The notes beneath the pieces are model-generated. The model worked only from the letters and a program-made list of their open reading frames with translations, made no database searches and had not been told where the DNA came from. Both the position numbers and the translations under genes were made by a program. Below are positions 9,050 through 46,595 of a DNA stretch of 46,959 nucleotides, in pieces (position 1 is the stretch's first letter; every line of letters begins with the position of its first letter). The stretch comes from a virus (lineage: Duplodnaviria > Heunggongvirae > Uroviricota > Caudoviricetes): the IMG/VR virus record IMGVR_UViG_2681813454_000002, positions 1 through 46,959 of that record, one strand, 5' to 3'.

Positions 9050-9112
9050 GTCTCTGCACCTTATAAAGCGGGTGCCGGGGGTCGCAGCCCGGAATTGTCA
9101 ACGGCGATATAT

Positions 9113-9133
9113 GACGCGCCAGCGTCTTTTTTA
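9113..9133 (+). terminator. Intrinsic terminator (GACGC-GCCA-GCGTC plus T6)
   Basis: Perfect 5-bp GC-rich stem followed by TTTTTT, about 65 nt downstream of the candidate promoter. Confidence 0.45.
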
Positions 9134-9298
9134 TCGTCCGCGCTCACGCACGCCAGAATTATGGTGGGCTGGGCAGGGGAGCCGAAAGGCTCGCCGGTTT
9201 CCGTTGACGCCGGTACTGCGAACCCTGTTCAGTCTGCCACCAGTGAGTTTCGCAGCTCCGGTGGTGGAAGTTTTCCACAGTCAACGGAGGCTGCCATC

Positions 9299-38349: not shown

Positions 38350-38692
38350 AAAGAATAAAAAAATCCCGCAGTGATCGCGGACAGGAACTGCGGGAGAGTT
38401 ACGAAGATTAAGTGTAAGGAATTATTCTTATATCACGACAAAAAAATTAACGCAGAGAAATTATACGCGCCACAGTCAGTGTGTGAAAATGTGAAGATAT
38501 TCAGAATTTTTATGCCATTACCGGTTTTAACCAACAGGATTATCGGTGGGCATGAAAGAAAACCCCGGTATCTGCTGATACCGGGGTTTCTCTTTAGCAT
38601 GGCAGAAATGTGTTTCATGCTTTTCGGGCGAAGGATATCCGACTTCTGTACGGAATGGCAAGTGGCGGTTAATTTATTCAGGGGAAGGCTGT

Positions 38693-41600
38693 ATGGGAAA
38701 AGGTGGCGGTAAGGCACACACGCCTCGTGAGGCGAAGGATAATCTCAAATCCACGCAGATGATGAGTGTGATTGATGCGATTGGTGAGGGACCGATAGAA
38801 GGTCCGGTGAAGGGACTGCAGAGTATTCTGGTGAACAAAACCCCGCTGACGGACACGGACGGTAATCCCGTGATACACGGTGTGACCGCGGTCTGGCGTG
38901 CCGGGGAGCAGGAGCAGACACCACCGGAAGGCTTTGAGTCCTCCGGAGCTGAAACCGGACTGGGCGTGGAAGTGACGAAGGCAAAACCGGTGACGCGCAC
39001 CATTACGTCCGCGAACATTGACCGCCTGCGGGTTACCTTCGGGGTGCAGTCACTGGTGCAGACCACGTCAAAGGGTGACCGTAACCCGACATCCGTCCGC
39101 CTGCTGATTCAGTTACAGCGTAACGGTAACTGGGTGACAGAAAAGGACGTCACCATTAACGGCAAGACCACCTCACAGTTCCTGGCCTCGGTGATTCTGG
39201 ATAATCTGCCTCCCCGGCCCTTTAACATCCGGATGGTCCGGGAGACGGCGGACAGCACCACGGACCAGCTGCAGAATAAGACGCTCTGGTCGTCATACAC
39301 CGAAATCATCGATGTGAAACAGTGCTACCCGAACACGGCCATTGTGGGGCTGCAGGTGGATGCGGAGCAGTTCGGCGGCCAGCAGATGACGGTGAACTAC
39401 CATATCCGCGGTCGTATCATCCAGGTGCCGTCAAACTATGACCCGGAAAAACGCACGTACAGTGGTATCTGGGACGGCAGTCTGAAACCGGCATACAGCA
39501 ACAACCCGGCCTGGTGCCTGTGGGACATGCTGACTCACCCGCGCTACGGCATGGGAAAACGTCTGGGGGCGGCGGATGTGGACAAGTGGGCGCTGTATGC
39601 CATCGGGCAGTACTGCGATCAGACGGTCCCGGATGGTTTCGGGGGGACCGAGCCGCGGATGACCTTTAATGCGTACCTGGCACAACAGCGTAAGGCGTGG
39701 GACGTTCTCAGTGATTTCTGCTCTGCGATGCGCTGTATGCCGGTATGGAACGGTCAGACGCTGACGTTCGTTCAGGACCGCCCGTCGGATGTGGTGTGGC
39801 CGTACACCAACAGCGATGTGGTGGTGGATGATAACGGCGTGGGATTCCGCTACAGCTTCAGTGCCCTGAAGGACCGGCACACGGCGGTGGAGGTGAATTA
39901 CACCGACCCGCAGAACGGCTGGCAGACCTCCACGGAACTGGTGGAAGACCCGGAAGCCATACTGCGCTACGGACGCAACCTGCTGAAGATGGACGCGTTC
40001 GGCTGTACCAGCCGCGGTCAGGCCCACCGTGCCGGACTGTGGGTGATAAAGACCGAACTGCTGGAAACGCAGACGGTGGATTTCACGCTCGGGTCTCAGG
40101 GGCTGCGGCACACACCCGGTGACATCATTGAAATCTGTGATAACGACTATGCCGGGATCCTGACCGGCGGACGTGTCCTGTCCATTGATGCTGCCACCCG
40201 CACCCTGACGCTGGACCGTGAAGTGACACTTCCGGAGACCGGTGCCGCCACGGTGAACCTGATTAACGGCAGCGGTAAGCCAGTGAGTGTGGACATCACC
40301 GAACACCCCGCGCCGGACCGGATACAGGTCAGTACCCTGCCTGATGGTGTGGAGACATACGGGGTGTGGGGACTCTCCCTGCCGTCACTGCGCCGTCGCC
40401 TGTTCCGCTGTGTCTCCGTCCGGGAAAACACGGACGGCACCTTTGCCATCACGGCGGTGCAGCACGTACCGGAAAAAGAAGCCATCGTGGATAACGGTGC
40501 CCGCTTTGAGCCGCAGTCAGGTTCCCTGAACAGCGTCATCCCACCGGCAGTGCAGCACCTGACGGTGGAGGTGAGCGCAGCTGACGGCCAGTATCTGGCG
40601 CAGGCGAAATGGGACACGCCGCGGGTGGTGAAGGGTGTGCGCTTCAGTCTGCGCCTGACCAGTGGTAAGGGAACGGATGCCAGACTGGTGACCACCGCCA
40701 TCACCGCAGACACGGAGCACCGTTTCAGCGGCCTGCCGCTCGGGGAATACACCCTGACGGTGCGGGCGATAAACAGCTATGGCCAGCAGGGTGAACCTGC
40801 CACCACCACCTTCCGGATTGCCGCACCGGCAGCACCGTCGCGGATTGAGCTGACGCCGGGCTATTTTCAGATAACCGCCACGCCGCATCTTGCCGTTTAT
40901 GACCCGACGGTACAGTTTGAGTTCTGGTTCTCGGAAAAGCGGATTGCGGATATCAGGCAGGTTGAAACCGCAGCCCGCTATCTTGGCTCGGCGCTGTACT
41001 GGATAGCTGCCAGTATCAATATCAAACCGGGCCATGATTATTATTTTTATATCCGCAGTGTGAATACTGTTGGCAAATCGGCATTCGTGGAGGCTGTCGG
41101 TCGGGCGAGCGATGATGCGGAAGGTTACCTGGATTTTTTCAAAGGAGAAATCGGGAAAACACATCTGGCCCAGGAGCTGTGGACGCAGATTGATAACGGT
41201 CAGCTTGCGCCGGACCTGGCTGAAATCAGGACGTCCATTACGAATGTCAGCAATGAAATCACGCAGACCGTCAATAAAAAACTGGAAAATCAGAGTGCGG
41301 CAATCCAGCAGATACAGAAAGTTCAGGTTGATACAAATAATAACCTGAACAGCATGTGGGCCGTGAAACTGCAGCAGATGCAGGACGGACGCCTTTATAT
41401 TGCGGGTATCGGTGCCGGTATTGAGAATACGCCAGCAGGAATGCAGAGTCAGGTGCTGCTGGCGGCAGACAGGATTGCGATGATTAATCCTGCGAATGGC
41501 AACACAAAGCCGATGTTTGTTGGTCAGGGCGATCAGATATTTATGAATGAAGTGTTCCTGAAATATCTGACGGCTCCCACCATTACCAGCGGCGGTAATC

Positions 41601-42166
41601 CTCCGGCATTTTCCCTGACACCGGACGGGCGGCTGACGGCGAAAAATGCCGATATCAGCGGTAACGTGAATGCGAACTCCGGGACGCTCAACAACGTCAC
41701 GATTAACGAGAACTGTCGGGTTCTGGGAAAATTGTCCGCGAACCAGATTGAAGGCGATCTCGTTAAAACAGTGGGCAAAGCTTTCCCCCGGGACTCCCGT
41801 GCACCGGAGCGGTGGCCATCAGGAACCATTACCGTCAGGGTTTATGACGATCAGCCGTTTGACCGGCAGATTGTTATTCCGGCGGTGGCATTCAGCGGCG
41901 CTAAACATGAGAAAGAGCATACTGATATTTACTCCTCATGCCGTCTGATAGTGCGGAAAAACGGTGCTGAAATTTATAACCGTACCGCGCTGGATAATAC
42001 GCTGATTTACAGTGGTGTTATTGATATGCCTGCCGGTCACGGTCACATGACACTGGAGTTTTCGGTGTCAGCATGGCTGGTAAATAACTGGTATCCCACA
42101 GCAAGTATCAGCGATTTGCTGGTTGTGGTGATGAAGAAAGCCACTGCAGGCATCACGATTAGCTGA
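38693..42166 (+). CDS. J: Central tail fiber / host specificity protein J
   Basis: 1157 aa, lambda gpJ-like over most of its length; the C-terminal about 150 aa differ from lambda. Confidence 0.95.
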
Positions 42167-42185
42167 ATTTTATAACCCAGATACG

Positions 42186-42210
42186 GGCGCCAGAAATGGC
42201 GCCTTTTTTA
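42186..42210 (+). terminator. Intrinsic terminator after J
   Basis: GGCGCC-AGAAAT-GGCGCC followed by TTTTTT. Confidence 0.55.
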
Positions 42211-42233
42211 TTGCAGAAAAGCGAGAGGTAATT

Positions 42234-42833
42234 ATGCGTAAATTATGTGCTGTTATTTTGTCCGCAGTAGTCTGGCAGGTCGCCGCTGCTACGCCAGCGA
42301 GTGCAGCAGAACATCAGTCCACGCTGAGCGCGGGGTATCTCCATGCCTCGACGAACGTTCCCGGTAGTGATGATCTGAACGGGATTAACGTGAAATACCG
42401 TTATGAGTTTACGGACGCGCTGGGGCTGATTACGTCCTTCAGTTATGCCAATGCTGAGGATGAGCAAAAAACGCGCTACAGCGATACCCGCTGGCATGAA
42501 GATTCCGTGCGTAACCGCTGGTTCAGCGTGATGGCGGGGCCGTCTGTACGCGTGAATGAATGGTTCAGCGCGTATGCGATGGTGGGTGTGGCTTACAGCC
42601 GTGTGTCGACTTTCTCCGGGGATTATCTCCGCGTAACTGACAACAAGGGGAAAACGCACGATGTGCTGACCGGAAGTGATGACGGTCGCCACAGCAACAC
42701 GTCTCTGGCGTGGGGGGCTGGCGTGCAGTTTAATCCGACCGAATCCGTGACCATTGACCTTGCTTATGAAGGTTCCGGTAGTGGCGACTGGCGAACGGAT
42801 GCATTTATTGTTGGTATCGGATACCGTTTCTGA
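42234..42833 (+). CDS. lom: Lom-like outer membrane beta-barrel protein (Ail/Lom family)
   Basis: Signal peptide then ..INVKYRYEFTD.. and C-terminal ..YEGSGSGDWRTDAFIVGIGYRF. Confidence 0.9.
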   Translation: MRKLCAVILSAVVWQVAAATPASAAEHQSTLSAGYLHASTNVPGSDDLNGINVKYRYEFTDALGLITSFSYANAEDEQKTRYSDTRWHEDSVRNRWFSVMAGPSVRVNEWFSAYAMVGVAYSRVSTFSGDYLRVTDNKGKTHDVLTGSDDGRHSNTSLAWGAGVQFNPTESVTIDLAYEGSGSGDWRTDAFIVGIGYRF

Positions 42834-42984: not shown

Positions 42985-45900
42985 ATGACAGTAAAAATTT
43001 CTGGCGTGCTTAAAGATGGCACAGGAAAACCAGTACAGAACTGCACCATTGTGCTGAAGGCCAGACGAACCAGCAGCACGGTGGTGGTGAACACGGTGGC
43101 CTCTGAAAATCCGGATGAAGCCGGACGTTACAGCATGGATGTTGAGCATGGTCAGTACAGCGTCACCCTGCTGGTTGAAGGTTTTCCGCCTTCACATGCC
43201 GGGACCATTACCGTCTATGAAGGTTCCAGACCAGGTACGCTGAATGATTTTCTCGGTGCCATGACGGAGGATGATGTCCGACCGGAGGCACTGCGCCGCT
43301 TTGAGCAGATGGTGGAAGAGGTGTCACGTAACGCCTCCGCGGTTGCACAGAATACGGCAGCCGCGAAAAAATCAGCCAGCGATGCCAGTGCATCAGCCAG
43401 CGAGGCGGCAACTCATGCAACCGATGCTGCAGCCTCAGCACGTGCCGCCAGCACGTCAGCCGGACAGGCCGCGTCGTCGGCTCAGTCAGCGTCTTCCAGC
43501 GCAGGAACGGCATCGACAAAGGCCCGTGAAGCAGCAAAAAGTGCTGCTGCTGCAGAGTCATCAAAAAGCGCGGCAGCTACCAGCGCCAGTGCCGCGAAAA
43601 CGTCAGAAACGAATGCCGCAGCATCACAAAAATCGGCAGCCACTTCTGCATCCACAGCGACCACGAAGGCGTCAGAAGCTGCCACCTCGGCACGGGGTGC
43701 GGCGGCCTCAAAAGAGGCAGCGAAATCTTCAGAAACGAATGCATCATCAAGTGCCAGTAGTGCAGCTTCCTCGGCAACGGCGGCAGGAAATTCCGCGAAG
43801 GCGGCAAAAACGTCCGAGACGAACGCTAAGTCTTCTGAAACAGCAGCGGGACAGAGCGCCTCAGCTGCGGCAGGTTCAAAAACAGCGGCTGCATTATCTG
43901 CCAGTGCCGCGTCAACAAGTGCCGGGCAGGCCTCAGCCAGTGCCACCGCCGCCGGAAAATCGGCAGAAAGCGCCGCATCATCCGCTTCAACAGCCACAAC
44001 GAAGGCTGGCAAAGCCACTGAGCAAGCCACTGCAGCAGCGAGGTCTGCTTCTGCAGCAAAAACCTCTGAAACAAATGCAAAGACTTCAGCAGACAATGCT
44101 GCTTCCTCTAAGGCGGCAGCCGCATCGTCAGCCAGTTCAGCGGCGTCATCGGCATCATCTGCGTCTGCTTCAAAAGATGAGGCGACCAGACAAGCGTCAG
44201 CAGCGAAAGGTAGTGCCACGACAGCAACAACGAAAGCATCAGAGGCGGCAGGCAGTGCGACGGCTGCATCTCAGAGCAAAGTTGCTGCTGAATCCGCGGC
44301 AACGCGCGCCGAGACAGCAGCAAAACGGGCAGAGGATATTGCATCCGCCGTAGCGCTGGAGGATGCGAGCACGACGAAAAAGGGGATAGTACAGCTCAGC
44401 AGTGCAACAAACAGCACCAGTGAAAAGCTGGCGGCAACGCCAAAGGCAGTTAAAACTGTTAAAGATAGTTCAGTTCAAAAAACTGGCGACACAATGGGAG
44501 GGCAGTTAAAAATCAGCACGATAAATGCTCTTCGAATATTCAACCAAGCCTTTGGCCTTATTTTTAGGCGTTCCGAAGATCATCTTCATCTTATTCCGAC
44601 TAATGAAGGGGAGGGGGAAAATGGAGACATCGGTTCATTAAGACCATTCTCTATAAACTTAAGATCAGGGTTGGTGTCCATCGGTAATGGACTAAAAGTT
44701 GGTGGTAGTGTTACTGGTAATTTGACCGGAAACGCAGATACTGCGACCAAGATCAAGACAGCACGTAAGATTGGGGGCGTGGCATTTGATGGATCGGCAG
44801 ATATCAACTTGCCTGGAGTCAACGCTACCGGTAATCAAAACACTACAGGTAATGCTGCGACCGCCACGAAACTTCAGGCAGCCAGAACGATTAACGGTGT
44901 GTCATTTGATGGTAGTGCAAATATCACATTGACCCCTTCAAATATTGGGGCATTGGCATTAACTGGAGGGACTCTTTCAGGTGGTTTAACTGCTGCTGGT
45001 GAGGTTATTTCAAGGTCAGCAAATGGTCTGCGTATTGCCTATGGCAACTATGGATTCTTTATCCGAAATGATGGATCAAACACATATTTTATGTTGACAG
45101 ATTCGGGTAACAGTCTTGGTACGCACAATAGCTTAAGGCCGTTTATAATTAGTAACCATACTGGCAATGTTACAATTGCAACTAAATTAAACGCGAGTGG
45201 TGGTATCACTGGATCTTTATCGGGTAATGCAAGCACAGCAACCAAATTGCAAACTGCAAGGACAATTAACGGCGTAAAATTTGACGGCTCGGCAAATATT
45301 GAAGCGTTTCCGCCAGGTGTTCCGCTGCCGTGGCCATCAGATACACCACCTGCAGGTTATGCAATCATGCAGGGGCAGACGTTTGATAAGGCAGCATATC
45401 CGAAACTGGCTATTGCCTATCCTTCAGGTGTTATTCCAGATATGCGCGGCTGGACAATCAAGGGCAAACCCGCCAGTGGCCGGGCCGTATTGTCTCAGGA
45501 ACAGGACGGCATTAAATCGCACACCCACAGCGCCAGCGCATCCAGTACGGATTTAGGGACGAAAACCACATCGTCGTTTGATTACGGCACTAAATCCACG
45601 AATAACACCGGGGCGCATACGCACAGTCTGAGTGGCTCTACGGGGTCTGCCGGTGTTCATACTCATGGTAATGGTATTCGTTGGCCAGGAGGCGGCGGTT
45701 CTGCGTTAGCATTTTATGATGGCGGTGGGTTCACTTATGTCCAGGATTCACAGTATCAAGTAAGCCCGGGGACTTCTTCCCGTAGATCGTATTATCAACG
45801 TATTCAGACACAGTCAGCAGGTGCTCATACCCACTCGCTGTCTGGTACTGCAGCAAGTTCTGGCGCACATGCACATACTGTAGGTATTGGTGCGCATACG

Positions 45901-46011
45901 CACTCCGTTGCGATTGGTTCACATGGACACACCATCACCGTTAACGCTGCTGGTAACGCGGAAAACACCGTCAAAAACATCGCATTTAACTATATTGTGA
46001 GGCTTGCATAA
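42985..46011 (+). CDS. stf: Side tail fiber protein Stf (1008 aa)
   Basis: N-terminus [22 protein letters not shown]..; long Ala/Ser/Thr-rich repeat region; C-terminal His-rich GAHTHS repeats and ..[22 protein letters not shown]. Confidence 0.9.
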
Positions 46012-46595
46012 TGGCATTCAGAATGAGTGAACAAGCACGGACCATAAAAATTTATAATCTGCTGGCCGGAACTAATGAATTTATTGGTGAAGGTGACGCA
46101 TATATTCCGCCTCATACAGGTCTGCCAGCAAACAGTACCGATATTGCACCACCAGATATTCCTGCTGGCTTTGTGGCTGTTTTCAACAGTGATGAGGCAT
46201 CGTGGCATCTCGTTGAAGACCATCGGGGTAAAACGGTTTATGACGTAGCGTCAGGGGACGAGTTATTTATTTCTGAACTCGGTCCGTTACCGGAAAATGT
46301 TACCTGGTTATCGCCGGAAGGGGAGTTTCAGAAGTGGAACGGCACAGCCTGGGTGAAGGATACGGAAGCAGAAAAACTGTTCCGGATCCGGGAGGCGGAA
46401 GAAACAAAAAACAACCTGATGCAGGTAGCCAGTGAGCATATTGCGCCGCTTCAGGATGCTGCAGATCTGGAAATTGCAACGGAGGAAGAAACCTCATTGC
46501 TGGAAGCCTGGAAAAAGTATCGGGTGTTGCTGAACCGTGTTGATACATCAACTGCACCTGATATTGAGTGGCCTACGAACCCTGTCAGGGAGTAA
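46011..46595 (+). CDS. tfa: Tail fiber assembly protein Tfa
   Basis: 194 aa, lambda Tfa-like ([24 protein letters not shown]..); TAATG overlap with stf. Confidence 0.9.

Follow-up and report, generated by a model that had tools for sequence, protein, structure and literature searches.

A common allele of the lambda-type receptor-binding domain in the tail tip protein J of a lambdoid prophage

Gene J and its neighbours in the prophage

The DNA examined here, a single stretch of 46,959 nucleotides from a tailed virus (IMG/VR record IMGVR_UViG_2681813454_000002; hereafter, the window), represents essentially one lambdoid prophage, comprising an integrase-side end, early genes, three tRNA genes, and the terminase, portal, head and tail genes, together with J, lom, stf and tfa. 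In the early region, Rfam matches to isrK (9056-9132) and to the C4 antisense RNA (9157-9244) lie adjacent to each other on the plus strand, a pairing that is presumably the one used in antirepressor control of the P1/P7 type. The tRNA genes (anticodons CAT, TCG and TCT) are found within 18020-19022, followed by two copies of the STnc100 small RNA (18345-18535 and 18813-19022). This site is the position at which Stx phages carry stx; no stx-sized open reading frame was found after the tRNA genes in the window.

Gene J, which encodes the central tail fibre or tip attachment protein, is located at 38693..42166 on the plus strand as an intact open reading frame of 1157 amino acids, ending with the stop codon TGA. 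Six Pfam domains were detected in its product, all above their cutoffs, in the order FNIII-A_GpJ, Phage-tail_3, Ig_J, Ig_J_second, Phage_Tail_Tip and Ig_GpJ_C. The spacer between I and J (38350-38692) is AT-rich and 343 nt long, as compared with about 60 nt in lambda. Its minus strand contains a near-consensus promoter (TTCACA-16-TATAAT, 38487 to 38460) and, at 38381 to 38365, a terminator-like hairpin with a U-run, which together suggest a candidate small RNA of roughly 95 nt; a second strong hairpin is present in the spacer at approximately 38553-38590. The candidate RNA showed no match to an Rfam family and is not svsR. Among 5426 complete E. coli genomes, the same spacer is conserved in 1444, where it has no annotation.

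Directly 3' of J, a terminator-like hairpin (42185..42214, plus strand) with an 8-bp stem containing six GC pairs is followed by a T-run, TTTTTATT. The next gene, lom (42234..42833, plus strand), encodes an Ail/Lom outer-membrane protein (Pfam PF06316, 412 bits) and is placed as in lambda. It is followed on the same strand by a gene for an stf-like side tail fibre (42985..46011; Pfam phage_tail_N, Gp34_trimer and Collar), a second host-range determinant, which is intact at 1008 amino acids, whereas its equivalent in lambda PaPa is split into orf-401 and orf-314. This protein contains a low-complexity stretch of about 350 amino acids, rich in Ala, Ser and Thr, at approximately residues 130-480. 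The tail fibre assembly gene tfa (46011..46595, plus strand; Pfam Caudo_TAP, 151 bits) completes the group, and an Rfam match to IS009 (225 bits) was observed at 46354-46552, inside the 3' part of tfa.

The J protein was aligned with lambda J (NC_001416, 15505-18903), to which it is 69% identical over the full length. The identity is unevenly distributed along the protein. Residues 1-820 and 898-1003 align without gaps and show 77% and 76% identity, respectively. The intervening segment, residues 821-897 (41153..41383, plus strand), is hypervariable and corresponds to the alpha-helical shaft of lambda J; its identity is only 21%, with 28 residues opposite gaps (amino acids 834-864) and a net gain of 25 amino acids. 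A preliminary description of this DNA had regarded J as collinear with lambda J up to about residue 1000. This view holds for the two gap-free regions and fails for the hypervariable segment between them, which had been overlooked. The lambda J region 809-861 is known to refold upon receptor binding (PMC11101478). Judging from record coordinates, the J proteins of phage 21, Stx1_499 and Chlobot have window-like lengths of about 1158-1160 amino acids, and those of lambda and 434 have 1132 and 1137, respectively. The beta-prism of the central straight fibre (residues 870-998; 41300..41686, plus strand) was recognised by Pfam PF09327 (Phage_Tail_Tip, 109 bits).

The C-terminal residues 1004-1157 (41702..42163, plus strand) align with lambda J without gaps, and only 65 of the 154 positions (42%) are identical. 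The change occurs abruptly: the nucleotide identity to lambda is 0.88 at codons 961-1000, which are 93% identical at the amino acid level, and falls to 0.48-0.57 at codons 1001-1157, with a third-position identity of 0.25-0.46 from codon 1001 onward. J has a sharp mosaic boundary at about codon 1001. The preliminary description had proposed that the last 150 or so residues differ from lambda, placing the start of the divergence at 41700, two nucleotides before codon 1004; the alignment bears this out, the boundary matches the coordinates that had been flagged, and the peptides quoted at that time are found in J.

Family, fold and exchange of the receptor-binding domain

The divergent segment is the receptor-binding domain (RBD), which terminates this J-type tip protein and is preceded by the FNIII/Ig domains and the Phage_Tail_Tip beta-prism. 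Its Ig_GpJ_C match covers residues 1027-1157 (nt 41771-42163); the score against Pfam PF12421 (tip attachment protein J, C-terminal receptor binding domain) was 127.6 bits, as compared with a cutoff of 26.2, and the match spans the entire model (1-135 of 135). In sequence searches, the RBD matched PDB 9wca (E 7e-117) and 8xcj (E 1.5e-95; about 1e-95 for 8xcj/8iyk), aligning end to end with the lambda RBD. An AlphaFold2 (AF2) model, computed as a monomer from a 17-sequence alignment, gave block-mean pLDDT values of 70-96 across most of the distal knob and of about 50 in the last ten residues; confidence was low outside the knob, as is to be expected for the adjoining trimeric beta-prism when a single chain is modelled. 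When this model was searched against the PDB with Foldseek, the best four matches, 9wca, 8xck, 8xcj and 9wcb (E 3e-19 to 2e-17; TM 0.61-0.69), were all gpJ fibres. Of these, 9wca and 8xck show the central fibre of A8 gpJ and lambda, respectively, in the closed state, and 9wcb and 8xcj show the corresponding open states.

These results show that the tip of the window J is an allele of the same lambda-type RBD, an Ig-like beta-sandwich that forms the knob at the distal end of the trimeric central tail fibre. Replacement of the C-terminus by a non-homologous domain, of the kind seen in Gifsy-1, was ruled out, because the segment aligns with lambda without gaps and has both the Pfam and the Foldseek matches. 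A conserved lambda-type C-terminal domain is therefore present as regards family and fold, given the PF12421 match and the gpJ structures, and absent as regards sequence. The tip is best described as an allelic variant of the domain that lambda itself carries, and not as a different domain. Gifsy-1 J of Salmonella is also lambda-like, with a divergent C-terminal part from about residue 964, uses OmpC on rough strains, and, according to its authors, has only 18% C-terminal identity to lambda (PMC12312913). No Gifsy record was present among the best 60 of 243 records that matched the window RBD in a tblastn search.

Several observations concern how such a tip might have been acquired. The end of the beta-prism stretch constitutes a conserved junction for the exchange of RBD cassettes. 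In the J protein of PhiR49_2, the sequence is of the Stx1_499 type as far as KAFPR and of the window type beyond it, and residues 1004-1033 of the window J closely resemble phage 21 before the two diverge. Moreover, lambda chimeras in which natural gpJ tips are fused at lambda residue 964 are functional (Brodel et al., PMC11338833), and this residue falls within the conserved stretch. The mosaic structure of PhiR49_2, the likeness to phage 21 and the coincidence of the conserved stretch with the chimera joint indicate that the tip behaves as an exchangeable module. Judging from these sequence patterns, the RBD was most likely acquired as a cassette through recombination in the conserved junction, as in other lambdoid phages.

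Distal loops and the candidate receptor

To place the allele among tips of known receptor, RBDs from phage records were compared over residues 1004-1157 of the window J. The RBD of PhiR49_2 is 90% identical to that of the window, followed by those of phage 21 (68%), Stx1_499 (65%), A8 gpJ, Chlobot and phi330 (63-64%), phage 434 (43%) and lambda (42%). The A8 gpJ 713 chain in the PDB is 100% identical in its RBD to Chlobot and 99% identical to phi330. The receptor has been shown to be OmpC for the A8/Chlobot/phi330 group; it is also OmpC for 434, and it is LamB for lambda. The comparison with J proteins of known receptor, which the preliminary description had recommended, thus places the window tip closer to the OmpC users A8 and phi330 than to lambda, and near-identical to neither. 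Neither the LamB-specific lambda allele, from which it differs in loop sequences as well as in overall identity, nor the OmpC-specific A8/phi330/Chlobot allele can be equated with it. Instead, it falls within the J-tip class of VT1-Sakai and PPompW, whose members share 90% or more nucleotide identity in the final 467 nt of J, and is 100% identical over this segment to 12 phage records. These include VT1-Sakai (AP000400), the PPompW_* prophages of E. coli O157:H7 and vB_EcoS-783R2, in which the whole J is 97-99% identical (99.1% for vB_EcoS-783R2 and 97.2% for VT1-Sakai at the nucleotide level), the gene order J-lom-stf-tfa is the same, and small differences are confined to the upstream part of J. 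Apart from PhiR49_2, which carries a window-type RBD, the allele forms a class of its own, with at most 68% identity to any compared allele with a named phage and at most 64% to any with a proven receptor.

Evidence for OmpC use by the related tips has come from several systems. A8 is a lambda chimera carrying a natural E. coli gpJ tip fused at lambda residue 964, and uses OmpC for DNA delivery into cells from which lamB has been deleted (Brodel et al. 2024, PMC11338833); PDB 9wcb represents A8 gpJ in complex with EDL933 OmpC. The second OmpC-using tip from Eligo, 1A2, works on EDL933 OmpC and not on K-12 OmpC (PMC11338833). For the long-tailed Stx phage phi330, failure on the Keio ompC mutant is reversed by Plac-ompC (PMC12502783), and the J protein of phage 434 confers OmpC use (PMC11101478). 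Lambda aside, the characterised alleles at an equal or smaller distance from the window RBD (A8, phi330 and 434) all bind OmpC. For OmpC use by long-tailed Stx phages, the phi330 paper cites its reference 47; this reference concerns the T-even phage PP01 and was set aside as irrelevant.

We examined four loops of the window RBD in relation to these tips. The first, DSRAPERW (residues 1034-1041; 41792..41815, plus strand), which the AF2 model places between strands, has the same length as the lambda loop and is 4 amino acids longer than its equivalent in A8 and phi330 (TSTY/TNSY). In phi330, this short loop, T918-Y921 (TSTY), has no predicted contact with OmpC (PMC12502783). The second is a hairpin tip, KHEKEHTDI (residues 1071-1079; 41903..41929, plus strand), which is likewise of lambda length and is 6 amino acids shorter than the hairpin ENFNSNNQQS of phi330 and A8. 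The phi330 hairpin, E953-S962, is predicted to enter the OmpC barrel (PMC12502783), and the long hairpin of A8 and phi330 was not found in the window, whose counterpart is EKEHTDI. The third loop, PAGHGH (residues 1113-1118; 42029..42046, plus strand), is a loop in the AF2 model. The fourth, LVNNWYP (residues 1129-1135; 42077..42097, plus strand), is the counterpart of ANNWTP in phi330 and A8, which in phi330 (A1015-P1020) is predicted to contact the rim of the barrel (PMC12502783). VNNWYP and ANNWTP match at four of six residues in the same position, the rim contact itself being an AlphaFold3 prediction; all of the phi330 contacts with OmpC are AlphaFold3 predictions by the phi330 authors and not a solved interface (PMC12502783).

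The window tip thus resembles the OmpC binders in its C-terminal third and lambda in the lengths of two loops. A8 gpJ shares with it the domain family, the fold, the strand framework, the NNW-P loop and the C-terminal end, and differs in its longer hairpin, its shorter preceding loop and its proven receptor. The lambda RBD (8xcj, LamB-bound; 8xck, closed) likewise terminates the same beta-prism fibre as an Ig-like domain with the two variable-loop lengths of the window, and both RBDs have an FPR...WPSG motif and a short hairpin; lambda gpJ differs in its contact-loop residues, in its use of LamB and in having 25 fewer amino acids in the helical shaft. The J protein of phage 434, the h434 host-range allele, belongs to the same domain family and has loop lengths different from those of the window. 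At the residue level, the loops of the window and lambda are dissimilar, with DSRAPERW and the hairpin tip standing against other residues in lambda (KRTVSGRTT in the case of the hairpin) and a further stretch of 12 residues standing against HSADIPPYTFAS. The divergence from lambda is not concentrated in the loops, as the identity was 40% in strands and 44% in non-strand positions.

Within the allele class, the distribution of variation is different. Among 32 cluster representatives with at least 85% identity, polymorphism clusters at residues 1071-1079, 1116-1118 and 1129-1132, which are predicted distal loops, and the strands are conserved; the counts refer to cluster representatives and not to independent events. 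The hairpin at 1071-1079 is the most polymorphic site, position 1116 varies among H, S and R, position 1118 among H, V and D, and positions 1129 and 1132 are also polymorphic. This clustering fits a role of the loops in receptor contact.

With respect to the receptor, the possibility that the tip still binds LamB, so that its host range at the level of the primary receptor would be that of lambda, appears unlikely to us. The shared fold and the gap-free alignment speak for it, as do the two loops of exactly lambda length, the FPR...WPSG motif and the short hairpin; against these stand the low overall identity, the different loop residues and the likeness of the C-terminal third to OmpC binders. 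Since the contact loops differ from those of lambda, LamB is very probably not the receptor. OmpC is the likeliest candidate, as it is bound by all of the nearest characterised alleles; on these comparisons we would put the chance that OmpC is used, possibly with a preference for certain OmpC alleles, at about even. The retained NNW-P loop, corresponding to the predicted rim contact in phi330, is in keeping with OmpC. Counting against it are the barrel-entering hairpin, which is six residues shorter, and the neighbouring loop, which is four residues longer, both lengths being those of a LamB binder, as well as the WPSG shared with lambda. Furthermore, 63% identity to an OmpC binder does not fix the specificity, given that a few point mutations switch lambda from LamB to OmpF (PMC11101478).

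The same plasticity of the RBD gives some weight to a different reading, in which the tip recognises an outer-membrane protein other than LamB and OmpC, such as OmpF, PhoE, NupG, Tsx or FhuA, and would represent a third specificity among lambda-type RBDs. It would be in keeping with this reading that the allele is a class of its own with respect to proven receptors and that it does not have the long hairpin predicted to enter OmpC in phi330 and A8. However, A8, phi330 and 434 all use OmpC despite a mutual identity of only 45% (99% between the A8 and phi330 RBDs), the NNW-P loop is common to the window and the OmpC binders, and we found no data favouring another receptor. We therefore regard a third specificity as conceivable and less probable than OmpC. 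Taken together, the explanation that we somewhat favour is a lambda-type RBD allele, acquired as a cassette, which recognises a porin other than LamB, most likely OmpC.

We searched the literature for receptor assignments of related tips. No receptor was found for the window allele or for the J proteins of VT1-Sakai, PPompW and 783R2 in the literature on J proteins of long-tailed Stx and O157 prophages, and no receptor data were found for the tip-carrying phages PhiR5_1, PhiR49_2, 2G7b and 783R2. Receptor evidence was likewise not found for Stx1_499. The receptor of phage 21 is not given in its genome announcement (PMC9119081), the Nature 2026 SNIPE paper, which uses strain ECOR13, contains no J receptor data, and the residues of lambda loops L1-L4 are not stated in the text of the Ge & Wang and Ur-lambda papers.

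By analogy with lambda and A8 gpJ, a course of receptor engagement can be proposed from PDB 8xcj, 8xck and 9wcb and from published work on lambda (PMC11101478). Each of the three knobs would engage one subunit of a trimeric outer-membrane porin by insertion of its distal loops, here probably DSRAPERW, KHEKEHTDI, PAGHGH and LVNNWYP. Docking would spread the bases of the knobs, and the resulting twist would be relayed through the beta-prism to the helical shaft. The beta-prism and shaft may then refold and the shaft flip, so that the tail tip would open for DNA ejection.

Abundance of the tip and its significance

The preliminary description had treated the tip as something out of the ordinary. 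We found it to be the most frequent J tip among E. coli prophages, and not a peculiarity of this element. The last 467 nt of the window J were detected, at a coverage of at least 80%, in 3349 of 5426 complete E. coli genomes (about 62%), nearly all at 90% identity or more, with a median of 2 and a maximum of 9 copies of the segment per genome. It is the lambda tip that is rare: the last 465 nt of lambda J were found in 98 of the 5426 genomes, in all cases at 99% identity or more, and K-12, B or DE3 laboratory strains account for the five that were listed. The exact lambda RBD is essentially confined to laboratory lysogens, which suggests that selection in nature has worked in favour of other tips in E. 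coli and counts further against LamB as the receptor of the window tip. The sequence itself was already known, having been in databases since the prophages of O157 Sakai were sequenced.

The same segment is 97-98% identical in PhiR5_1, 2G7b and many Stx2a phages. PhiR5_1 and PhiR55_1, which have the same or a near-identical tip, list E. coli C as the host, and 2G7b and vB_EcoS-783R2 also carry the tip. K-12 is the listed host in none of the 58 phage records with the window tip, and some phages with a 434-type tip do list K-12. At best, this hints weakly that K-12 OmpC may not serve the allele as a receptor.

Defective prophages are numerous in E. coli, and the presence of up to nine copies of the segment in a single genome raises the question of whether the tip is a decaying remnant that has lost its function in adsorption. 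We consider this very improbable, as the J reading frame is uninterrupted over its 1157 codons and matches all six J domain models above their cutoffs, lom, stf, tfa and the upstream tail genes are intact, deposited phage records that name a propagation host contain the same or nearly the same tip, and polymorphism falls in the loops with the strands conserved. The preferred reading remains that of a lambda-type RBD allele directed to a porin other than LamB.

Since the h434 host-range hybrids, it has been known that alleles of the J tip can differ in their receptors. J tip alleles are also exploited in engineered lambda particles, and the tip of the window, taken alone, matters little. Its significance lies in its class, which is the dominant natural one and for which our literature search found no receptor assignment; in natural E. 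coli prophages, it is the LamB-binding tip of lambda that is exceptional. As a host-range determinant, the tip is shared by thousands of prophages, including some with Shiga toxin genes. It is a tentative possibility that this commonest class of E. coli J tips recognises neither LamB nor OmpC, or only particular OmpC alleles. If so, an uncharacterised specificity would govern the entry of most lambdoid prophages, including long-tailed Stx phages, into E. coli strains.
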